Source of the DNA: Candidatus Thorarchaeota archaeon
GTDB taxonomy: Archaea > Asgardarchaeota > Thorarchaeia > Thorarchaeales > Thorarchaeaceae
NCBI GenBank assembly: GCA_008080745.1
Contig: SHMX01000004.1
Span: 384,704-416,703 of the forward strand
Direction of reading: 5' to 3'
Length of the DNA: 32,000 bases
A model generated the notes under the pieces. The model was not told the DNA's origin. It searched no databases and saw only the letters and a program-made list of their open reading frames with translations. A program made the position numbers and the translations under genes. This document shows positions 3,072 through 22,840 of the stretch, piece by piece (position 1 is the stretch's first letter; each line of letters starts with the position of its first letter).

Positions 3072-3668
3072 TCATTCAACAAATGTCGGATTAATCATGA
3101 GAAAGAAATTTTTCTCCCTACTAAATGGTTTCGAGTCAAGATATCTCTTTCTTAATCTCTCAATTTCATCATCAGGTGGGTCCCGGTAATCCCCGAGACC
3201 TCGATTTGTTGGTCTGTCACAGGCCCAATTTGGATTTCCCTGTGCAACCAATTTTCTGGTTTTTGCTTCGAAGATCTTGTATCCTTTGGTCAGAATTCCA
3301 ATCAGCTCTTGGAATCTTTTATCACCTGCACAATCGGTTCCACAGGTCCCTCCGAAGGTTTCAAGAGGATAAAGCACACACCCCTCGGGTCTATAGGGAT
3401 AGATGCTGCACCCTCTGTGCTTTACAAAAAACGGACACGGGCTCTCTCTTCGGGCCTTTTTTGAGAGGTACTTGTATTCCAACTGTTCAACGGATATGAA
3501 GAGATAGTCTGCAATCTCCTGTTTAGTACCTGCAAGTATGCTTGGCGGAAACTCAGTACAGCAATTCCCACATTGTTTACAGACATAGGGGATCCGTAAA
3601 GTAAACCTCTCTCCATTGTCTGCTATCAAAATGAATTCCTTGTACAGGAGCACATCAAAGAAATCCAT
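3072..3668 (-). CDS. YkgJ/UPF0153-type cysteine-cluster (Zn or Fe-S binding) protein
   Basis: CKQCGNCC, PCPFF, GCSIYPYRPEGCVLYP and CGTDC: the CxxCxxCC...C..F...CxIYxxRPxxCxxYP family pattern. Confidence 0.85.
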   Translation of the reverse strand: MDFFDVLLYKEFILIADNGERFTLRIPYVCKQCGNCCTEFPPSILAGTKQEIADYLFISVEQLEYKYLSKKARRESPCPFFVKHRGCSIYPYRPEGCVLYPLETFGGTCGTDCAGDKRFQELIGILTKGYKIFEAKTRKLVAQGNPNWACDRPTNRGLGDYRDPPDDEIERLRKRYLDSKPFSREKNFFLMINPTFVE

Positions 3669-3730
3669 CTTTAACCACTTAGAAGTGTAATTCTTCTCTT
3701 ATGGGTTCTTTGATTTGCCAAAATATTCTG

Positions 3731-4978
3731 TCATCTGGTATGTTTTAGAACAGCCAGATGCTCGGTCTTCATTCTCTCATCTTTCAATCCTGAAGCAGGA
3801 TTTACTTTGGATTTGAACATGACTCTGGATACGATCGTATCGACATAGGTCATTTCATGCTTCCACCCCTCCTGAGTCAAATGTTCAATCAGTATCTCAT
3901 CGATTGGAATCTCTGTTGTGCGAATCTTCGCAGGACCGACAAAAATACACATTCGGTTTCTGACCTTTTTGCCAACCCTGGAAAATGTGCCTATCATTGC
4001 ATGGAAGTATCGATCATATAGTAATCTCAGATGGTCTTCTTTGATTTGTTCTCGATATTTGTAATAGGTCTCGGAGTTGATTTCAACTTCCTTCACTTCA
4101 TTGTATGGAATCTCTTTTCTCCCAAGTGCTCTGATGTCCTTGTCAGTGTGACCTAACCAATAGAGTTCGAGTTTTGTAGAACGAATGTATTCCTGTGCCT
4201 GCAGGTACGGTGGAGATGTGATTAGTATATCCACCTCTTCATCCAGATCAGTGTTCAGGGTATCTATCCCACACTTTATGCGATACGAAACATCTTGTGG
4301 GTTTAGCGTAGAATACTCCTTAATGCCATCCATCAATTTCCTAACTTCATCTTCCAACTTCTTGTAGAACAGAGACTTCCAATCCTTTTTTCTTAGCTCT
4401 TTGATCTTTCTCTTTGCGAATTTTGATTTGTAGAGCTTGTGGGTCTTCTCATCGCTCCAGGAAAAAAAGCGAGTTGTTTTCACCAGTGGTATCTTTAGAA
4501 GCAGGGATTCGTTGTATTCAAGTGAGTGGACATAACCCCATGCTCTTGATATCATGGGAACGAACTCTTCTGGAAACCAGTACTCCATGCGCGACCATTT
4601 GGGGATGAATTCAAGTTTTGATGTTTTCAACTCTTGAATCAGACTATCGATACCTATCTTTGATTGTTCCATAATTGCAGTATCATGGATTAATTTCATC
4701 AAGGGGTTAAGATCCCACAGGACATAATCATACCCATAGACTTTGGAAACGAGACCTGTTGTACCATAACCACCGAAAGGATCAAAGATAACATCATTTT
4801 TCTCTGCGAATTTCTTTATGGGATATGCTACAATTTGAGGGATGAATTTTGCTGGATATCCATAGATTCCAAAAGTCCCGTATGTTGTTCGTGGGATTTC
4901 AGGAATAAGGTCTCGGAACCTAACTTCAATTCGTTCAGAGTCTTTACTTTGATCTAATTCCTGAGTCCCCTCTTTCAT
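3731..4978 (-). CDS. Orphan amino-type DNA methyltransferase, probably N4-cytosine, alpha-class motif order
   Basis: Motif X-like GIYGYPAKFIPQ, motif I DPFGGYGTT, then catalytic motif IV ITSPPY. SPPY is typical of m4C enzymes. No endonuclease gene adjacent. Confidence 0.85.
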   Translation of the reverse strand: MKEGTQELDQSKDSERIEVRFRDLIPEIPRTTYGTFGIYGYPAKFIPQIVAYPIKKFAEKNDVIFDPFGGYGTTGLVSKVYGYDYVLWDLNPLMKLIHDTAIMEQSKIGIDSLIQELKTSKLEFIPKWSRMEYWFPEEFVPMISRAWGYVHSLEYNESLLLKIPLVKTTRFFSWSDEKTHKLYKSKFAKRKIKELRKKDWKSLFYKKLEDEVRKLMDGIKEYSTLNPQDVSYRIKCGIDTLNTDLDEEVDILITSPPYLQAQEYIRSTKLELYWLGHTDKDIRALGRKEIPYNEVKEVEINSETYYKYREQIKEDHLRLLYDRYFHAMIGTFSRVGKKVRNRMCIFVGPAKIRTTEIPIDEILIEHLTQEGWKHEMTYVDTIVSRVMFKSKVNPASGLKDERMKTEHLAVLKHTR

Positions 4979-5156: not shown

Positions 5157-6386
5157 TTGTTTCTGACTGATTATAGCAAAAAGATGATGACGAAGACCTT
5201 TCGCAAGACTATCTACCAATTTACAGAAACTCCCTCCCCTGTCTTTAGCGATAGATTTGGGGTCTATCTTCATGTCCCATTCTGTCACACAAAGTGTACT
5301 TTCTGTCCCTTCTACAAAGAACTCTATGATGCTGAATTGAAAGATAGGTATGTTGAAGCTATGGTCAAAGAGATTAGTAATACCGATATACAAGGAGAAT
5401 CAGAGTGGATTTACTTTGGTGGCGGTACACCAAATACCCTGAGCATTGAAGAATTACAAACTATCTTAGAAGCCTTGCAAGGAAAAATGACACTCTCCAA
5501 CATTGGAATAGAGCTTCTTCCATCTCTCGTCACCATGGAATATCTTGATGGTCTCAGAGAGATTGGATTTTCAAAAATCAGCATAGGTATTGAGACATTT
5601 CAGGAAGAGAGCATTAAGAAGACTGGAAGAAAAGGAAGTTCCTTCCAACATATTTCTGATATCATTCAATATGCTCAGTCTATAGGTCTCCACGTTGCAG
5701 TAGACCTCATGATTGGACTACCAGGTCAGACCTCTGAGACCTTTGATGATGACATTGAAAAAATCATTCGGATTGGTCCCGACCAAATAACTATCTATCC
5801 CTATATGGTGATAAGAAATGTTTCTGCGGTTCCAAGCTGTTCTACTGCTGAGCAATTTGTACACATAGAACGCGCTGCTGCAAATCTCGAGAAGTCGGGA
5901 TATGAGAGAAAATCCGTGTGGATCTTTGTTCTACCAAATACTGATGACAGAGATGTCTATGACTCATCAAAGGACGAACTCATCAGTGATTATTGTGGCT
6001 TTGGCCCTGCGTCATTTTCTACCTACGGTGGTTTCAAAGTCGTCAAGCCAGAGTTAGATGTGTGGTTAGAAGGAATTGCATCAGGCAATCTTCAATCCTT
6101 TGTAGCTCCCAAGACCAAGAGCACAGATGATTGGAGACGGTTTGCAAATCGAATATATGATTTGAAATTGGAAACCTCTTACAAGTTTCCATTGTATATT
6201 CGATTCTTTGACTTTATTTTGAGGATGTCTGGATACCACAAAGATGGATACCTCACTGACAAGGGTCGGTATTTCTCACACGAGATAACTAAAGCTGTTG
6301 TGGAATCTCTGCCGTTTCCCCTGCAAGATCCGTCCTGTGTAGAAAACTTTCATGAGTATCTGGAATTGAAAAAGGAGATTAATTAA
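5157..6386 (+). CDS. HemN-like (coproporphyrinogen III oxidase family) radical SAM protein
   Basis: GVYLHVPFCHTKCTFCPFY (CxxxCxxC), IYFGGGTP, DLMIGLPGQT. TTG start with GAGG about 9 nt upstream; ATG at 5184 is an alternative. Confidence 0.88.
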   Translation: MFLTDYSKKMMTKTFRKTIYQFTETPSPVFSDRFGVYLHVPFCHTKCTFCPFYKELYDAELKDRYVEAMVKEISNTDIQGESEWIYFGGGTPNTLSIEELQTILEALQGKMTLSNIGIELLPSLVTMEYLDGLREIGFSKISIGIETFQEESIKKTGRKGSSFQHISDIIQYAQSIGLHVAVDLMIGLPGQTSETFDDDIEKIIRIGPDQITIYPYMVIRNVSAVPSCSTAEQFVHIERAAANLEKSGYERKSVWIFVLPNTDDRDVYDSSKDELISDYCGFGPASFSTYGGFKVVKPELDVWLEGIASGNLQSFVAPKTKSTDDWRRFANRIYDLKLETSYKFPLYIRFFDFILRMSGYHKDGYLTDKGRYFSHEITKAVVESLPFPLQDPSCVENFHEYLELKKEIN

Positions 6387-15478: not shown

Positions 15479-17293
15479 CTACGGTAGGATATCTGATACT
15501 TTTCCAGCCATTCGAAGTTCTGTCATTGCTGATTCGTAAGCTCTCAGGACATCAGTCTTGGTCAGGAATCCAATCATGATACTCTCATCGTCCGGGTCAA
15601 CTACAACTGCATGTCCTTCATCGCGTTCCATCATATAGCGAAGTACTTTATCAATCGGGGTTTGAGGGTAAACGATTAGAAAATCTGGATTCATGAGCTC
15701 CCATACCATGAGGGTTTCTTCCTTATCATGCCAACATTTCTCCAGAGTTTCTGCGATGACAGTTCCCAGTATCTTTTCATCTAACACAACTGGGAATTTA
15801 GTATGCCGGGTTTCATAGATCATATCAAGAGCATCTGAGGCAAGCATATCCGGTCTTAGCGTTACTGGGTTCTTAGTCATAACCTGCTGAACTGAAACAA
15901 TACGTAATGCATCAAGATAAAGTCCCTGCTTAAGGTTAACACCTTTTCTGCGAAGTTTTTCAGTATAGATACTATCTGGATTTATTGCGGAACTTATAAT
16001 ATACGAACTTGATACAGCGATCATCAGAGGAAGAATCATTCCATAGTCACCAGTCATTTCCATTGTCATGACAATACAAGTGACAGGAACATGTGCAGTT
16101 CCAGAGAACATAGCTGCCATTCCTACTAGTGCGAAAGCCATTGGGAATGGTACGATTTCTGGAAATAGATATTCGAAACAATATCCAAAAGCACCTCCTA
16201 TTCCAGCACCGATGAAGAGAGTAGGTGCGAAGACACCTCCTCCTCCACCTGACCCAACAGTAAGCGAGGTGGTGAGCATTTTAATTAAGCCGAATGTTAT
16301 CATAGCAGCTATGGAAACTGTACCTAATAGAGTAGCGTTTATGAAACCGTAACCACTTCCCATTATAGCTGGGACATATGGATTGACGCTAGTGAATGCA
16401 CCTTGATATCCAAAGATTCCCTCCAATATAATCACCATCGCTGCAATTATTCCTGTAAGTAATCCTCCAAGAGCTGGTTTGCTGTACTCTGAAATTCGTA
16501 GTTTTTCAAACGCTTCTGAAAACCAATAGAATATTTTTACCCAATATTTACTCAAGAAACCAAAGACCAGACCCATCGCAAAAAACAGAACCAATTCGGT
16601 ATAATTTGTAAGGATGAACTCTGGTGCTATAAAGGAAGCAGTTTCTGTTCCAAATACACCAACTGCAATAGCCACACCAATAACAGAAGCCAGGATAACT
16701 GGTACAATGGAGACCGCTGTCAACTCACCTACAAGAATCTCGATTCCAAAGAGACCTCCACCAAGAGGCGCACCAAATGTAGCAGCTACTCCGGAACTCA
16801 ATCCGCATACTAGAAGTGTCCTTGTTGCTTTCCTGTCAAGCTTTAATCTCTGTGCCAAGGCGGAACCAGCTCCAGCCCCAAGCTGAGCAATAGGTCCTTC
16901 TCGTCCACAAGATCCACCGGAGCCTATGCTGACTGCAGAGGTAAGAGATGTGACTATAGTGTCCCTTGTGGATATCTTTCCGCTCTTTATTGAATATGAC
17001 TCCATGACCTCAGGGATGGCTTTAGTTTCGGTTGGAAATCGGACATAAAGGAATCCACTGATTATACCACCAATTGCAGGGATAATAACCCAACCAAGGA
17101 TTCCAATGGTGTTGGGAAGTAGTGAAAATATCTGCGTGATACCAAATATGGTATATCTGAATACAACTGCAATGCACCCAGCAATTGCACCTGTGAGAGC
17201 CCCTAGAACATACAGTCTTGCTTGTTGTTGTTTGAGGAAATAGCGTATTCCGTTACCTCGATTTGACTGTTTTATTAGGCGGCTCAAAAGCAA
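15479..17293 (-). CDS. eriC: CLC-family anion channel/transporter with two C-terminal CBS domains
   Basis: GSGGSCGREGP, GGGVFAP, central Tyr in DSIYTEKL; CBS pair VQQVMTKNPVTL...FPVV and LMNPDFLIVYP...GFLTKTDVL. Start is TTG at 17293 or 17287 (the latter is better spaced from GGTGA). Confidence 0.93.
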   Translation of the reverse strand: MLLSRLIKQSNRGNGIRYFLKQQQARLYVLGALTGAIAGCIAVVFRYTIFGITQIFSLLPNTIGILGWVIIPAIGGIISGFLYVRFPTETKAIPEVMESYSIKSGKISTRDTIVTSLTSAVSIGSGGSCGREGPIAQLGAGAGSALAQRLKLDRKATRTLLVCGLSSGVAATFGAPLGGGLFGIEILVGELTAVSIVPVILASVIGVAIAVGVFGTETASFIAPEFILTNYTELVLFFAMGLVFGFLSKYWVKIFYWFSEAFEKLRISEYSKPALGGLLTGIIAAMVIILEGIFGYQGAFTSVNPYVPAIMGSGYGFINATLLGTVSIAAMITFGLIKMLTTSLTVGSGGGGGVFAPTLFIGAGIGGAFGYCFEYLFPEIVPFPMAFALVGMAAMFSGTAHVPVTCIVMTMEMTGDYGMILPLMIAVSSSYIISSAINPDSIYTEKLRRKGVNLKQGLYLDALRIVSVQQVMTKNPVTLRPDMLASDALDMIYETRHTKFPVVLDEKILGTVIAETLEKCWHDKEETLMVWELMNPDFLIVYPQTPIDKVLRYMMERDEGHAVVVDPDDESIMIGFLTKTDVLRAYESAMTELRMAGKVSDILP

Positions 17294-17391: not shown

Positions 17392-17760
17392 TCACGTAAT
17401 CAGTAATTGGTTTCCAATAACTAATCCCAAAGAGAGCACTATGAATCCGAATAATAGCGAGTAACTTGCATATTCGACACTTTTCATTTTGTCGACATTC
17501 CAGAGGTTATTGATCTCCATTACAAAAGAGGAAAACGTTGTAAAGGATGAGAGAAAGCCTATTACAATGAACCAGTATTGCAGGTCTGAGATAGTAATTA
17601 CTGGTATAAGTATTCCAAGACAAAAAGATCCTAGAATATTGACAGCGATGGTTGCGACTGGTAGTTCTCTAACGACTACATCTTCTGATAGCTTAGAGAC
17701 AAAGACTCTGCTGATTGCTCCAAAAAATGCCCCAACTGCGATGAGGATTGATTCCAGCAT
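17392..17760 (-). CDS. crcB: Fluc/CrcB fluoride channel subunit 2
   Basis: VGAFFGAISR, LPVATIAVNILGSF, GFLSSFTTFSSF; 4 TM; starts 6 nt after the stop of subunit 1. Confidence 0.95.
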   Translation of the reverse strand: MLESILIAVGAFFGAISRVFVSKLSEDVVVRELPVATIAVNILGSFCLGILIPVITISDLQYWFIVIGFLSSFTTFSSFVMEINNLWNVDKMKSVEYASYSLLFGFIVLSLGLVIGNQLLIT

Positions 17761-17766
17761 CTTACT

Positions 17767-18207
17767 TCACTTCGGTATTCTTGAGGATATAGTTGGTTCT
17801 GTCGGTGATTCTGTTTGAAATTTCCTTTTCTTGACGGTTCTTAAGCCTAGTTGAAATCCTATCAATCCAAGAAGTACATGCCCCATAATTAATGTCCCAG
17901 GAATGAACGGATGCGAAACCAGAAGCAGAAGATAGGAATCTGCAATGAATGTTGAAAAGGTAGTGAATGAACCGATGAAGCCAGCTGAGATATCCTTCAT
18001 GTGGACTCGAAGAGTCTCGTTGGTTGGAACCATTTGCAAAACAAGTCCGAGTACAAAGCAACCTAAAACATTGACAATAATCGTATCCACAAAAATCGGA
18101 AGAGCAAGGATATACTCTGTAAGGAATGAAATGCACCATCTTGAGAGTGCACCCATCACTCCCGCTAGTCCAATAACTATCCACATCTTTTGAATTTGTA
18201 ATGACAT
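17767..18207 (-). CDS. crcB: Fluc/CrcB fluoride channel subunit 1
   Basis: GVMGALSR, IIVNVLGCF, GFIGSFTTFSTF; GGTGAG SD at 18221-18216. Confidence 0.95.
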   Translation of the reverse strand: MSLQIQKMWIVIGLAGVMGALSRWCISFLTEYILALPIFVDTIIVNVLGCFVLGLVLQMVPTNETLRVHMKDISAGFIGSFTTFSTFIADSYLLLLVSHPFIPGTLIMGHVLLGLIGFQLGLRTVKKRKFQTESPTEPTISSRIPK

Positions 18208-18250
18208 TTTTTTTGCTCACCGTCATCTGACTATCATTTGTGTCCAAGAA

Positions 18251-18296
18251 GTAGGAATCATCAGCCCGGTGGGCGGTTATGGTGGATCCCATCACC
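18251..18296 (-). ncRNA. Fluoride riboswitch (crcB RNA motif) aptamer
   Basis: Minus strand reads GGUGAUGGGAUCCACCAUAACCGCCCACCGGGCUGAUGAUUCCUAC. It matches the crcB consensus GGxGAUGG..U(C)xCC..AACCGC...GCUGAUGAxxCCUAC. P1 GGUG/CACC, pseudoknot GGGAUC/GAUUCC and P2 GCCC/GGGC all pair. It lies 44 nt upstream of crcB. Confidence 0.93.
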
Positions 18297-18320
18297 AAGC
18301 TGGTTCAATCCATAAGCGAA

Positions 18321-18335
18321 TAAATAAATTGTTGT
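18321..18335 (-). promoter_or_regulatory. BRE/TATA promoter of the riboswitch-crcB transcript
   Basis: ACAACAATTTATTTA on the minus strand; the end of the TATA element is 25 nt from the first G of the aptamer, the expected archaeal spacing. Confidence 0.65.
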
Positions 18336-18412
18336 ACGTCAAATTTGTAATAGCATAATGAAATTTACTATACTTCTAACAGCTTTCTTTTTTCATAATA
18401 CAATCAACATAC

Positions 18413-18832
18413 CTAGGATGCCATTATTTCTTTTGCCAGTGTTACTAATTCACATGTTGGTACGTTAATAATTTCGGAAACATATTCTTCAATACTCTCA
18501 AATTCTTCCAGTGACCTTTTTGATTTAAGTTGGATGAAAAATTCCTTACCTTTTTCTGTTAGTTCATAGTCGTATCGATCAATACTATCGGACAGTTGTG
18601 TTCGTGATTCTTCAATAAGGCCGAATGACACAAGAAATCCGATATATTCAGATAACTCATGAGAATATGGACCATAATAATATGGTGTAAATTCAAAATT
18701 AAAATGGATTTTTTTTTCCTTCTTCAGTAAGAAAATAAGCTTCTGAAATCTTGTCCTTCCCTCAATTCTATCATGATTTCCTATTAGATATATGATTCTT
18801 GCAGCATCGCCAATATCCACCACTATCACCAT
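18413..18832 (-). CDS. YwgA-like / Panacea (SocA, DUF4065)-related winged-helix protein
   Basis: IEGRTRFQKLIFL, FTPYYYGPYSHEL and YELTEKG motifs. Its ATG overlaps the HD gene stop (ATGGTGA, 18832-18826). Confidence 0.75.
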   Translation of the reverse strand: MVIVVDIGDAARIIYLIGNHDRIEGRTRFQKLIFLLKKEKKIHFNFEFTPYYYGPYSHELSEYIGFLVSFGLIEESRTQLSDSIDRYDYELTEKGKEFFIQLKSKRSLEEFESIEEYVSEIINVPTCELVTLAKEIMAS

Positions 18833-20130
18833 TCTCTTATTATTTCTGAAACCTGTTTATCTATATTTTCTTTCTTAAAAATCGATTCGTCTGCTAGTTT
18901 AGGTTTGATATAAACATATATTTTCATTTCTTGCTTAGACATTGCTTTTACAATGGGCGAAACTTGAGTTAATTCTATTGGTTCACCTTCTTCACCTATT
19001 TTATTGATTCTAATAGTCTTTGGAACTTTGTTCTTTATTATATCAAAAATTACTGAATAGCTGTCAAATTTTTCACTCATTTTTCTACTAATTTCGTCTG
19101 ATACAGAGTCTGAATTATCCTTTACTGCATCGAAAAATGGTAAATTAGATTTCTCAAATTCTTCTCCAAATTTTTTCTCGTAGACTGGTATGTAAAGGTT
19201 TTCAGATAGAATCAAATCCACTAATTCCTTAGATTCTTCTCCTGTTGAAAGTAAATCATTAAGTAGACTTGTTTCTCCTAATTTGAGAAATTCATCCACA
19301 TTTGTAAATTTCTTCATAAATTCGCTATCTTCTTCAATCGCTACAATTACAGCTTTCTCAAGCATCTTTTCAGCAATCCGAGTAGGTTGGTAATAATAAA
19401 CTAAAGAATACATACTTCTCCAAATTAGTAGAAAATTCTCAGCAACTACAATGGAATTAGGTGAATCTTTTAATCCAATCTGATATTTCTCCAAATTTTC
19501 TCCATTTCCTAGAATGTCAATATGATCCATAAGATATTCTAAATCAAATCCATATTTCAAACCAGTATGATAACTATCTCTAAGTAAATAGTCCATTTTG
19601 TCTACATCTAATGGGCCATCAATAATTTCACTAATATATTGATATGGTTTGTTTTCACTAGATTTTCTTGAAAATATACCAGTTAGCATATCAAATGGAA
19701 TCATCGCATTTTCAATTTCACGTTCGTATTTTTCTAATATTTCTACTGCTAAATGCTCATGTTTCTTTCCCATCATCTTATCCGTGACAAAATCTAAGAC
19801 ATGTGAGAAAGGACCATGTCCGACATCATGAAAAAAACCAGCAGCCATCAAAACATTGTCTACTCGATTCAAATTTTCTCGTAGCTCTGGTCGCGGATGT
19901 GTGTCCTCTTTACTTTTCAGTTTATCAACTAGGATTTTTGCTAGATGCATTGTACCTATACAATGAATATATCGTGTGTGCATCGCCCCCGGAAATCCGG
20001 TGTATGCTTTGAGACCTAACTGTCTAATATCATACATTCTTCTAATCTCTGGATTTCTAACCAGCTTCTTCACCCATTTTGGGATTTGTATTCGCCCATG
20101 AACTGGGTCTACCACGAAATTATAGCCCAT
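18826..20130 (-). CDS. SAMHD1-like HD-domain dNTP triphosphohydrolase (YwfO/COG1078 type)
   Basis: VVDPVHG, IRQLG..Y..FPGAMHTRYIH, FFHDVGHGPFSH, LDVDKMDYLLRDSYHTG: complete H...HD...D set. Start moved from 20235 to ATG 20130, where family homology begins and a TATA element lies 25 nt upstream. Confidence 0.9.
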   Translation of the reverse strand: MGYNFVVDPVHGRIQIPKWVKKLVRNPEIRRMYDIRQLGLKAYTGFPGAMHTRYIHCIGTMHLAKILVDKLKSKEDTHPRPELRENLNRVDNVLMAAGFFHDVGHGPFSHVLDFVTDKMMGKKHEHLAVEILEKYEREIENAMIPFDMLTGIFSRKSSENKPYQYISEIIDGPLDVDKMDYLLRDSYHTGLKYGFDLEYLMDHIDILGNGENLEKYQIGLKDSPNSIVVAENFLLIWRSMYSLVYYYQPTRIAEKMLEKAVIVAIEEDSEFMKKFTNVDEFLKLGETSLLNDLLSTGEESKELVDLILSENLYIPVYEKKFGEEFEKSNLPFFDAVKDNSDSVSDEISRKMSEKFDSYSVIFDIIKNKVPKTIRINKIGEEGEPIELTQVSPIVKAMSKQEMKIYVYIKPKLADESIFKKENIDKQVSEIIREW

Positions 20131-20155
20131 AATCAATCCAAATAGAATTCCTACG

Positions 20156-20170
20156 TAAATAAATTGTGGT
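20156..20170 (-). promoter_or_regulatory. BRE/TATA promoter for a near-leaderless HD-gene transcript
   Basis: ACCACAATTTATTTA, 14/15 identical to the riboswitch promoter, ending 25 nt before ATG 20130. Confidence 0.55.
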
Positions 20171-20336
20171 GGTAAACCTAAAATTCTGCTATCGATTGCA
20201 CTACCTTTCGATATGTTACTTGTTTCATTTTGCAATCTCGGTTTTTAATTTTTTGATAATCGATCAATATCTCACGGTACTCGTACGGAATCCAGAATCT
20301 AAACGATGATACATTTCGGTGCAAAAGGATTGCCTC

Positions 20337-20758
20337 TCAATTATGTTCAGTGTATTCCACGATGAATCTGGTGAATTCTTCGATATCCCTTAGATTGGTT
20401 TGAAGAATCTTGTACAAAATCGCATCATCAAAACATTGGTATAAGTGAACTACTCTATTCCTAAATCTTGCCATTTCGATTAGATGCTCTGCTAGTTCTT
20501 CTGATATGACATCATTTTCACTCAGAATTAAAAAGACCATTGAATATCTTCTTGGTTTATCCCATCAGTTAATAGAAATGATATGCGAACTAATACCAAC
20601 ACAGATTTGTATTGATTCTATCAGGAAGTATTTTGCTGATGCTACTTCTTTTAAATCTTCCAAGAACTCCTCTTGAGTAAGATTACTCTGATTACCAAAT
20701 ATTCTCAGGTTCTTAGTGAGTCTTGGAGTCGAGAATTGATTGTTGAGTTATCCTTCAT
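20337..20758 (-). pseudogene. hepT: HepT/DUF86 HEPN RNase toxin pseudogene
   Basis: ATG 20758 overlaps the MNT stop (ATGA). MKDNSTINSRLQ, then a frameshift near 20721 into TKNLRIFGNQSNLTQEEFLEDLKEVASAKYFLIESIQICVGISSHIISIN, TGA at 20567-20565, then WDKPRRYSMVFLILSENDVI...RFRNRVVHLY (RX4H motif). Confidence 0.85.
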
Positions 20759-21117
20759 TGTTGACCAGTCTCTTTGATGCGTTTGCGCATGTAATAGTAG
20801 TAAGTGTCTAATACTGGCTTGAAATCAAAATTTTCAAAGAATATTCTTTTCTCAAATTGAACTCTCTTATTTTCGTCGGTTGAGAGTAGGAGTTTCCCAT
20901 CGGTTATCACTTGGAATAAGAATTCCAAATCGCCTCTATTCAGTATTCTTACATCTGCTTCTATTGTTTCTAATATGGTTGATATCTCATGCATCAGGGA
21001 TAGAATCAGAGATCCTATGTCATTAAATGGTTCTCTCAGATATATTCCATTAGAGAGAAAATCCAAGACAATGATATCGACTCTGTTACAAAGGTTCCAC
21101 AGATGATTCAGGACCAT
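20755..21117 (-). pseudogene. mntA: Degenerate MntA-type minimal nucleotidyltransferase antitoxin
   Basis: C-terminal half is typical (EADVRILN...FQVITDGKLLLSTDENKRVQFE...FDFKPVL). The GS..DxD catalytic motif reads GIYLREPFNDIG, and the N-terminus upstream of about 21045 does not look homologous. Confidence 0.65.
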
Positions 21118-21514: not shown

Positions 21515-22840
21515 TCATATCCAATTCACCATGATATTGATGCGATGGAACTGGTTTTGTAGTATTTTCAACTCTTCTTTGTTAACTTTAACTCCATATT
21601 CAAGTGCGCACAGCAATTTCTCAACAGTATAGCAGCTAACAATATCAGATAGGTCATATGTATCGTAACGCGGTTTCGGAACAAATTCCATAACACGCTT
21701 ATTTTCCAACTCTCTTAGTTCCAGTATTCGTGGGACGAGACGCGAAGCTTCAGTCGTACTAAATGAATCAATTTCTAAAAACACAGTACTGCAGCCACGA
21801 TTAAGATAGTCTTCCATTAGATCCCTATGAAAGTTGCAAAAGTCAGCATCATATTGGTCCGATAAATATTGTCGCAGTCTGTACCGTATCATAGTATCTC
21901 CTTCAATTGGAGCACCTACCTGATAGATACCCCGAGCAGCATCCCCCAAGTCAAGCTCTGGATGGGTGAGGAGGTCTTCTGCGTTGGTCATTATCAAGTC
22001 AGAAAATTTCCAAACAGCTTTTTGTAATCCGTCTGATGCAGTATACCAGAATGGTGATAAATACACGAGTGTTAAAGGGTTACCATCTAGTTCTAACGAT
22101 ACTAACTTCTTACAAGGATTCAATGGAGAGAGGTCTAGCTTTATGATATCATTACAACATAGATCTAACCAACGTAACTTTGTACAGGACCCAAGGGGCG
22201 AGAGGTCCAACTCAGTGAGAGAGGTGGAAACAAGATATAACCCTTCCAGATGCGACCAAGAGCCCAGGGGAGAGAGGTCCAGTTGCCCGAATGGGTTTTC
22301 GGAGATGTCTAGAGTCTTAATCTGCATGTAATTACTCAGGAGTGAGAAGTCAAATTTGGTAAGATTAGTGGCATTCAAGCTTAAATCATGTAGTTGGGGG
22401 CAGGAGTTCAGTAGCGAGATGTCTAGTTCAGTGAACGGGTTATAACCCAGATTCAGTTTTTCTAATTTGCGAAATATACTCAGGAGTGGGAGGTCCAGTT
22501 GAGTGAGCTTGTTTCTGGACAGTTTTATTTCCTGCAGCTGTGTACAATTACTCAGAGGTGAGAGGTCCAGTTGAGTCAACAAGTTATCGGAGAGGTCTAA
22601 AACTTTCAGTTGTGTACAATTACTCAGAGGTGAGAGATCAAAATGACGGAGATAACTATCTCTGATATTAACTATAGTCACTCTGGAGAGGCAATCATGA
22701 TCTATCCTTTCTAACTGTGTTTTGGATGAAATTTCAATTGTATCCTTGATCATGTCTTCGAACCTCAAATGCATCACTAATGTATTCATAATCAATTCAT
22801 TATTAGTATGTTTCGAAAGAATCATACCCAGTTTATACAC
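21515..22840 (-). CDS. Cytosolic leucine-rich-repeat protein, about 8-9 repeats of 24 aa, plus unknown C-terminal domain
   Basis: DLSPLSNCTQLKVLDLSDNLLTQL-type 24-residue units. Near-identical DNA segments 72 nt apart (tgtgtacaattactcagaggtgagag at 22539 and 22611). No signal peptide. True start may be ATG 22789. Confidence 0.9.
   Translation of the reverse strand: MYKLGMILSKHTNNELIMNTLVMHLRFEDMIKDTIEISSKTQLERIDHDCLSRVTIVNIRDSYLRHFDLSPLSNCTQLKVLDLSDNLLTQLDLSPLSNCTQLQEIKLSRNKLTQLDLPLLSIFRKLEKLNLGYNPFTELDISLLNSCPQLHDLSLNATNLTKFDFSLLSNYMQIKTLDISENPFGQLDLSPLGSWSHLEGLYLVSTSLTELDLSPLGSCTKLRWLDLCCNDIIKLDLSPLNPCKKLVSLELDGNPLTLVYLSPFWYTASDGLQKAVWKFSDLIMTNAEDLLTHPELDLGDAARGIYQVGAPIEGDTMIRYRLRQYLSDQYDADFCNFHRDLMEDYLNRGCSTVFLEIDSFSTTEASRLVPRILELRELENKRVMEFVPKPRYDTYDLSDIVSCYTVEKLLCALEYGVKVNKEELKILQNQFHRINIMVNWI

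Follow-up and report, generated by a model that had tools for sequence, protein, structure and literature searches.

Is a SAMHD1-like phosphohydrolase that is encoded together with a small antitoxin-fold protein a device of antiviral immunity, or is it a nucleotide-pool enzyme with a subunit of its own? This question is raised by two overlapping genes in the genome of a Candidatus Thorarchaeota archaeon, which lie in a stretch of 32,000 nucleotides (contig SHMX01000004.1, positions 384,704 to 416,703) that was analysed as a whole and is referred to below as the window. Antiviral nucleotide depletion is common to humans (SAMHD1) and bacteria (dGTPase, dCTP deaminase and Clover), and safeguards on such toxic enzymes are, to our knowledge, known for a few systems only. 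The original prediction for this locus, made from the sequence letters alone, held that the small protein keeps a deoxynucleoside triphosphate (dNTP) hydrolase in check and releases or activates it on infection. A restraining antitoxin with an antiviral mechanism, carried on an inserted dNTPase–Panacea cassette, is the best single reading of the locus, with a probability of about 0.45; the mechanism is one that we infer, and the complex on which it would depend is a predicted one.

The gene pair and its products

The first gene of the pair (18826–20130, minus strand) encodes an HD phosphohydrolase of the SAMHD1/EF1143 family, assigned from Pfam matches, Protein Data Bank (PDB) matches and catalytic residues. 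The second (18413–18832, minus strand) encodes a YwgA-like partner of 139 amino acids (aa) with a Panacea or DarG C-terminal fold, assigned from an AlphaFold2 model and from matches in PDB and PADLOC. As had been proposed, the two make up a minus-strand unit with overlapping stop and start: both open reading frames (ORFs) are present, and the 7-nucleotide overlap ATGGTGA (18826–18832, minus strand) can be read directly in the sequence. Homologous pairs overlap by 1–11 nucleotides or are separated by an 8-nucleotide gap, and every gene between 15.5 and 24.3 kb of the window lies on the minus strand. For the small gene there is an alternative GTG start 9 nucleotides downstream, which would give 136 aa and is used in the database gene call. 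The longest open frame of the HD gene extends to a TTG at 20235 (469 aa). Since alignments with solved structures and with more than 6000 homologues start at residue 40 of this frame, and a TTTATTTA box lies 26 nucleotides upstream of the ATG at 20130, the gene most likely begins at that ATG and encodes 434 aa. Position 20170, which had been taken as the end of the unit, is not a start codon and marks the edge of a promoter-like element.

The HD protein passes the cut-offs of two Pfam families, HD (39.9 bits, cut-off 22) and HD_assoc_2 (50 bits, cut-off 23.1). Among solved structures it matches 2q14 (9e-29) and EF1143 (2o6i; 1.4e-26), then 9mr6 and 2hek, and SAMHD1 chains at about 1e-20, so that its description as a SAMHD1-like enzyme was borne out. 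In an alignment of 60 homologues with 38–57% identity, R53, H56, H101, D102, H105, H110, D113, H124, D177, K178, Y181 and D185 are invariant. The full HD catalytic set that had been claimed is thus present, and the metal-binding H...HD...D quartet (H56, H101, D102 and D177) is complete; the correspondence of these catalytic residues to SAMHD1 numbering is presumed. Together these results support membership of the SAMHD1/EF1143 family (COG1078), in which the enzyme looks catalytically intact as judged from its sequence. The characterised members of the group with HD and HD_assoc_2 domains, EF1143 and SAMHD1, are dNTP triphosphohydrolases, and the window's enzyme is taken to be a nucleotide triphosphohydrolase, most likely one that acts on dNTPs.

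The small protein matches no Pfam family at cut-off and gives only weak winged helix-turn-helix (wHTH) matches. PF13274 (SocA_Panacea, DUF4065) is not matched even at E up to 1 and is matched weakly by 6 of 36 homologues of the protein (best E 0.062). In PADLOC, matches were obtained to PDC-M19A (3.4e-10, over the first 100 positions of a 294-position model), to the C-terminal part of DarG (4.7e-7) and to LmuC (3e-5). The DarG positions covered are 181–282 of 329 in the PADLOC model and 188–281 of 338 in the NCBIfam model, and domain searches with the small protein gave no Macro match. Its AlphaFold2 model (pLDDT 93.7, pTM 0.88) has the DarG chain of DarTG 7yk3 as best solved match (Foldseek E 1.6e-3, TM-score 0.62), and in the ESM Atlas it reaches TM-scores of 0.77–0.80 over about 130 residues with clusters that are 100% PF13274, and of 0.77 with a DarG cluster. 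A homologue on a Haloarcula plasmid carries a DUF4065 annotation, and the JGI label 'uncharacterized protein YwgA' stands on 8 of the 36 listed homologues. The suggestion of a Panacea/YwgA-like partner therefore held for the modelled fold and for the annotation name and not for membership in PF13274: going by its model, the small protein has a Panacea fold but falls outside the Pfam family threshold.

The motifs GRTR..QK and F..YYYGP are invariant across the 36 homologues and LTEKG is nearly so. A profile search with the small protein returned 5296 clusters (50% identity) at E ≤ 1e-3 and 1293 at E ≤ 1e-10; among the best 150 clusters, 148 were stand-alone proteins of about 105–185 aa and two were of about 230 aa. 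Longer proteins with this domain also occur. In one (P0304, 369 aa) it is fused to a uracil-DNA glycosylase domain (PF03167), in four others (P0305–P0308, 319–340 aa) it is N-terminal with no other Pfam match, and ORFs of about 300 aa with a YwgA-like domain are found in the genomes G003, G024, G026 and G034 (L004–L007). An HD–YwgA fusion was not found among the longer proteins listed, which is weak evidence.

A predicted complex on the C-terminal lobe

Structure prediction of the pair, which the original prediction had named as a check, returned a complex of the HD enzyme and its partner with an ipSAE interface score of 0.80 (median of three runs), compared with 0.07 for the best of three controls. 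This mark is reached by 58 of 80 solved complexes and by 2 of 110 mismatched pairs, benchmark counts that apply only roughly because our own alignments were used for both chains. The runs share at least 95% of their contacts, and the pLDDT of the partner within them is at least 85. We know of no solved HD–Panacea complex, and for this reason it is unlikely that the model merely reproduces a known structure.

On the partner, the predicted contacts fall at residues 26–28 (in GRTR), at 49–56 (the Tyr-rich motif PYYYGPY), on the helix 58–72 and on the wing 80–87, and the invariant residues of the protein lie within this interface. On the enzyme, they fall at 164, 207–217, 321–337 and 369–402, in the C-terminal HD_assoc_2 lobe and including its conserved GEPIEL..S strand. 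The prediction supports binding of the partner to the C-terminal lobe of the enzyme through the winged-helix face that would otherwise read DNA. One loop of the enzyme (325–330) occurs in the two partnered clades, whereas the partner-less clade has a gap at this place; this is no more than a hint.

An accessory cassette in this genome

The genome that contains the window (G000; 3.16 Mb, 98% complete) has four genes with HD and HD_assoc_2 domains and one partner gene, and the copy in the window is the only partnered one. The HD ORF has a GC content of 32.5% compared with 41.5 ± 2.6% for the 1304 ORFs of at least 300 aa in the genome, of which 0.23% are as low, and at third codon positions the values are 24.1% compared with 34.4 ± 4.1%. 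The gene pair lies in the lowest 0.1% of 1.7-kb windows by GC. The line counts by which low GC had originally been noticed (30.0, 28.3 and 25.0% compared with 45.0%) were exact.

Comparison with a genome of the same genus (G001) locates the cassette. A 4.4-kb contig of this congener (C105) is collinear with the window: its PQQ-protein region corresponds to 25945–22998, its region with an MNT nucleotidyltransferase gene and the toxin gene hepT to 20998–20422, and its riboswitch promoter and crcB to 18335–17905. The stretch 18336–20421 has no counterpart by blastn of this contig and alignment. From HepT to the crcB promoter there are 2087 bp in the window and 178 bp in the congener, a difference accounted for by the HD–YwgA cassette, which measures about 1.84–1.92 kb with edges uncertain by about 80 bp. 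An insertion in the window's genome is more parsimonious than a deletion in the congener because of the composition of the pair and its rarity in the family.

The cassette is bracketed by a 15-nucleotide imperfect direct repeat (repeat family D16) with 14 of 15 positions identical. The upstream copy is the promoter-like element with transcription factor B recognition element and TATA box (TTTATTTA; 20156–20170, minus strand), which aligns with the crcB-riboswitch promoter of both genomes. The downstream copy (18321–18335, minus strand) is the fluoride riboswitch–crcB promoter itself, at which homology with the congener resumes. The repeat may be a duplicated target or merely two similar promoters, and in a stretch this rich in AT, repeats of such length occur at the level expected by chance. 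No tRNA was found in the window, nor were clear att sites or terminal inverted repeats.

In a second genome of the family with the pair (G020), it is on a contig other than that of the ClC orthologue. The original prediction had named a core, syntenic pair with normal GC as what would speak against it. Instead, the pair is an accessory one with low GC that is not syntenic and that the congener lacks at the collinear locus. These sequence comparisons support an accessory, horizontally acquired and self-contained cassette.

Distribution across archaea and bacteria

A tblastn search with the partner (E ≤ 1e-6) gave 26 genome-contig loci, 23 of which have a same-strand, adjacent SAMHD1-like HD gene. 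The paired loci include archaea (Bathyarchaeia, Nitrososphaerota, Culexarchaeota, Thermoplasmata, Methanothrix and ANME-2c) and bacteria (Acidobacteriota, Fischerbacteria, WOR-3 and Ignavibacteria), and in one clade of pairs the gene order is reversed. This set was selected through the partner. Four HD homologues on long contigs were chosen regardless of the partner, and all four are followed by a downstream YwgA-like gene of 138–151 aa (E 1e-29 to 1e-52). A near-obligate pairing is thereby supported at the level of gene neighbourhoods. The HD–YwgA pair is of ancient origin and occurs in many phyla of both archaea and bacteria. The original description of an 'uncharacterised archaeal module' was not supported: bacteria have the pair just as commonly, and a pair of HD (YdhJ) and Panacea genes is listed by Kurata et al. 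(2022) as a predicted, untested toxin–antitoxin family. In the Nitrosotalea contig L049, the HD gene is split into two parts (3616–4566 and 5447–5935) about 880 bp apart beside an intact partner, and may represent an insertion or a broken copy.

In a maximum-likelihood tree, the partnered enzymes form clades of their own, apart from the partner-less core Asgard paralogues, and the label of partnered or partner-less needs two changes only; this clustering arises partly by construction because most partnered rows were chosen through the partner. The window's enzyme is placed as ((G000,(L040,G020)),G007) within a clade of Bathyarchaeia and Nitrososphaerota, in an unrooted tree.

Within the lineages sampled, the partnered form is rare. 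Of 37 genomes in the family to which the window belongs, about 4 have the partner gene; at E ≤ 1e-20, it was detected in 3 of the 51 genomes searched from Nitrosopumilaceae and in 3 of the 61 from Bathyarchaeia. HD matches are found in all 36 family genomes searched. Close orthologues of the window's enzyme in the family are limited to those of G020 (52%) and G007 (42%), both of them partnered, and a more distant partnered form occurs in G011.

Immune module or nucleotide-pool enzyme

In the favoured reading, an intact nucleotide triphosphohydrolase of SAMHD1/EF1143 type would be encoded by gene 1 and a translationally coupled, stand-alone Panacea-fold protein by gene 2. The two proteins would bind in a fixed stoichiometry, with the partner restraining or gating the dNTPase, by analogy with Panacea and DarG antitoxins and their toxins. 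If the partner were lost or triggered, for example on virus infection, dNTP hydrolysis would be freed and DNA replication starved, and the pair would act as a toxin–antitoxin (TA)-like conflict module of the abortive-infection type. A conflict role is argued chiefly from the patchy distribution, the mobility, the foreign composition and the presence of an antitoxin-fold partner on a potentially toxic enzyme. The fuller proposal, in which the pair is an antiviral module of archaea and bacteria whose Panacea-fold subunit serves both to sense infection and to clamp a SAMHD1-family dNTPase by its regulatory lobe, letting go of it when infection occurs, is put forward tentatively, as possible but doubtful.

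Homologous pairs are often found among defence genes. In the window itself, the neighbours of this kind are the decayed HepT and MNT genes. The contig of the closest homologue has an Eco57I-type restriction–modification (RM) system, ParB_N and an nSTAND NTPase near the pair. Another pair is neighboured by EcoO109I RM, Mrr, AAA_15/21 and PIN genes, a further one by a D12 methylase, AAA_14 and an M78 peptidase, and the pair in G020 has RAMP proteins of a type III CRISPR locus nearby. In a different Asgard family, the genome G040 (L116, C12:130000–149999) carries two HD–YwgA pairs within 8 kb, together with Mrr, PIN, two AAA_15/21 ATPases, an OLD-TOPRIM protein and a 313-aa Panacea-domain protein, and this locus looks like a defence island with duplicated pairs. 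Strong PADLOC matches within three genes on each side of 25 pairs comprise RM types I, III and IIG, AbiEi/Eii, Cmr6, HerA, PD-Lambda-5 and several methylases.

Other observations weigh against an antiviral restraint. The same scan of 20 control loci, chosen arbitrarily from seven of the pair-bearing genomes, also gave strong matches (type II RM, HEC-01 and AriA/AbiLi), and the enrichment is about two-fold at most, at roughly 8–9 of 25 compared with 3–4 of 20 loci in a rough reading of distinct systems from family lists, not per-locus counts. Thus, where the original prediction had looked to gene neighbourhoods as a check, frequent defence neighbours were found, but not a clear excess over background. 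Several pairs adjoin ribosomal, SRP54 or exosome operons. A tblastn search of a phage collection with the partner gave no match, and in IMG/VR there are three weak partner loci, of which one contig only has an adjacent HD gene; among plasmids, two weak haloarchaeal matches were the only ones found. Furthermore, the predicted interface is on the C-terminal lobe and away from the active site, so that inhibition is not evident from it, and in terms of this model, activation, scaffolding or targeting of the enzyme are equally conceivable roles of the partner. The interface positions on the HD side are conserved no more than the rest of the domain, in an alignment that is unreliable between clades. 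Type II toxins are usually smaller than this 434-aa enzyme, and the enzymes of the SAMHD1 family already have allosteric control of their own. In addition, enzymes of the YwfO type are regarded as persistent housekeeping genes in Firmicutes.

In the strongest rival reading, the pair is a non-immune, two-subunit nucleotide-pool enzyme of which an extra copy was acquired here. The YwgA-like protein would then be a regulatory, oligomerisation or targeting subunit of a hydrolase for dNTPs or aberrant nucleotides; the hydrolase would balance or sanitise the pool, a role assumed for Bacillus YwfO. Such a role would agree with the age of the pair and its spread over many phyla of archaea and bacteria, with the ribosomal, SRP or exosome surroundings of some copies, and with a predicted contact on the regulatory lobe and not on the active site. 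It would also agree with the occurrence of HD_assoc_2 enzymes in 9 of 14 model genomes, including that of B. subtilis, and with the discussion of YwfO in the literature as a housekeeping sanitising enzyme. However, partnered copies are few and scattered in each of the three sampled lineages, and the pair is non-syntenic and differs between congeners by an indel of foreign composition. Partner-less paralogues are already present in the genome, with an HD match in every genome of the family, and the fold of the partner is otherwise known from antitoxins and defence proteins. On balance, a non-immune enzyme is a rival to be taken seriously, which we regard as possible without expecting it.

A second rival concerns the chemistry, which would differ whatever the role of the pair: the true substrate could be something other than dNTPs, such as NTPs, RNA 5'-triphosphate ends or signalling nucleotides. 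The top PDB matches 2q14 and 2hek have no assigned activity, and the literature proposes YwfO as a hydrolase of RNA 5'-triphosphates or modified nucleotides. The enzyme lies outside the curated dGTPase and anti-phage dGTPase families, at 18–22 bits compared with cut-offs of 152–494 bits; for the NCBIfam anti-phage dGTPase models NF041026 and NF003701, the scores are 18.2 and 19.1 bits and the cut-offs 400 and 383. The dGTPase model of PADLOC is matched at E 7e-5 only, over about 70 residues around the HD motif. Against this, EF1143 and SAMHD1 share the architecture of the window's enzyme and act on dNTPs, and their active-site residues, in a presumed mapping, are invariant here, which makes a different substrate unlikely. 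It is highly improbable that the small protein is an ordinary wHTH transcription factor of PadR or MarR type, one that controls its own operon and does not bind the enzyme stably, for although there are weak sequence or fold matches to MarR, PadR, Sso10a and HTH_45, the protein is acidic (pI 5.0), its invariant residues, 'recognition' helix and wing sit in the predicted protein interface, so that the face expected to read DNA is used for protein contact, the complex far outscores its controls, the full-length fold matches are to Panacea and DarG whereas shorter wHTH regulators reach TM-scores of about 0.4, and, as Kurata and colleagues argue, PanA antitoxins do not bind DNA through their Panacea domain.

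Neighbouring genes

Upstream of the cassette is a decayed MNT–HEPN pair, as had been described. The gene for HepT, a HEPN RNase toxin, is a pseudogene (20337–20720, minus strand) with an in-frame TGA at 20565–20567. Its C-terminal ORF of 67 aa matches HepT positions 62–118 of 120, and the sequence ahead of the stop codon encodes the N-terminal half in the same frame. Beyond it is a degenerate MntA-type nucleotidyltransferase gene (20755–21117, minus strand), with profile scores below the cut-offs (MntA 38.4 bits, cut-off 60; Polbeta 23.4, cut-off 26.9) and matches to the C-terminal half of each profile only. It reads DIG at the position of the DxD motif of the family. The congener G001 keeps a related MntA–HepT pair (a type VII TA system) at the same place. 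A function of this nucleotidyltransferase as a regulator of the HD enzyme in the manner of CloB, the nucleotidyltransferase of Clover, was considered and rejected, as the gene is of MntA type and is paired with a broken HepT.

Farther upstream, a leucine-rich-repeat gene of 441 aa (21515–22840, minus strand) with internal 72-nucleotide repeats is also absent at the collinear locus of the congener, where the interval is about 300 bp compared with 2000 bp in the window. As both this gene and the cassette are absent there, at least two separate insertions are suggested beside the TA remnant. Directly downstream of the cassette is a complete fluoride riboswitch (Rfam RF01734, 53.4 bits compared with a gathering threshold of 34) at 18245–18305 on the minus strand, which drives tandem crcB genes (17392–17760 and 17767–18207), followed by a ClC/CBS channel gene (15479–17293).

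The assembly contains five contigs of 2.4–14.6 kb (C14, C15, C17, C18 and C19) with 62–65% GC, compared with 39–43% elsewhere, which are probably contaminants of this metagenome-assembled genome. The stretch itself is covered by two DNA runs only, from one marine-sediment study that is probably its source, and no RNA run is listed.

Significance

If the favoured reading is right, the pair suggests a different kind of safeguard on nucleotide depletion, namely a dedicated antitoxin-fold protein that is predicted to sit on the regulatory lobe of the enzyme. Under the fuller proposal, this would be the first SAMHD1-type enzyme gated by a protein and not by nucleotides, and the first time that immunity by nucleotide depletion is shown for Asgard or TACK archaea. 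If, on the other hand, the role is one of housekeeping, the pair would reveal a hitherto unrecognised subunit of a nucleotide-pool enzyme that is widely conserved, with Bacillus YwfO–YwgA as one example. The locus offers two congeners that differ cleanly in whether they have the cassette, a complex model of high confidence in which the contact residues are named, and a single genome in which partnered and partner-less paralogues can be compared.

The relevance to SAMHD1 origins that had been suggested was not upheld. For a partner-less core paralogue on contig C2 of this genome, the match to human SAMHD1 has an E value of 2e-34 (122 bits), compared with about 1e-20 (about 76 bits) for the copy in the window, which groups with Bathyarchaeia and Nitrososphaerota. 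The window copy is a poor witness for SAMHD1 ancestry because the core paralogue is closer and because its own clade is patchy and partnered.

Comparison with known systems

The window's enzyme resembles human SAMHD1 and EF1143 of Enterococcus faecalis in its HD and HD_assoc_2 domains and catalytic residues and has significant similarity to both, and unlike SAMHD1 it has no SAM domain. SAMHD1 and EF1143 are controlled by allosteric nucleotides and tetramerisation, and we know of no Panacea-like protein partner for either of them. Single-gene anti-phage dGTPases were reportedly described by Tal et al. in 2022; the window's enzyme differs from these, scoring 18 bits where the cut-off is 400.

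For the partner, the best solved match is the toxin-binding C-terminal domain of DarG in DarTG (7YK3). Unlike DarTG, the window has neither a macrodomain nor DarT, and the protein that is predicted to be bound is an HD hydrolase and not an ADP-ribosyltransferase. The ywfO-ywgA genes of Bacillus subtilis are linked to the pair through annotation names, in that the window's homologues are named YwgA and 'HD superfamily phosphohydrolase' by JGI; no functional study of YwfO–YwgA was found in the literature. A dGTPase survey of 2026 makes no mention of Panacea or of an operon partner. In the follow-up work on NetFlax, a stand-alone Panacea protein neutralises its toxin directly, via residues next to the second strand, and a sensor role has been proposed for the Panacea domain.

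A survey of DUF4065 neighbourhoods (Kurata et al., 2022, PNAS; PMC8832971) includes in its Dataset S1 the predicted PanAT family pT33/T34, in which an 'HD domain-containing protein' (CDD YdhJ, equivalent to COG1078) is combined with a stand-alone PanA. The family was found in five thermophilic Firmicutes (Ammonifex, Desulfofundulus and Caldicellulosiruptor), is marked 'notest' and is absent from the main text (PMC8832971). The window's pair is like pT33/T34 in having the YdhJ/COG1078 enzyme first and a small stand-alone partner second (theirs at −17 to +23 nucleotides). It is unlike pT33/T34, compared here by description, in that their partners pass the DUF4065 Pfam model whereas the window's resembles it in fold only, and in its host, an Asgard archaeon with an enzyme of a Bathyarchaeia/Nitrososphaerota-type clade as opposed to thermophilic Firmicutes. 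Among pairs of this already catalogued, untested combination, the window's is a divergent archaeal variant.

The need for restraint on a defence dNTPase by a co-encoded protein has been shown experimentally for Clover, which combines the dGTPase CloA with the nucleotidyltransferase CloB (Yamaguchi et al., 2025; PMC12265719), and in which CloB restrains CloA through the small-molecule signal p3diT (PMC12265719). Like Clover, the window's pair would join a nucleotide-depleting HD effector to a co-encoded partner, for which we infer a restraining role. Unlike Clover, its two proteins are predicted to bind each other directly, and the coupled partner is not a nucleotidyltransferase.

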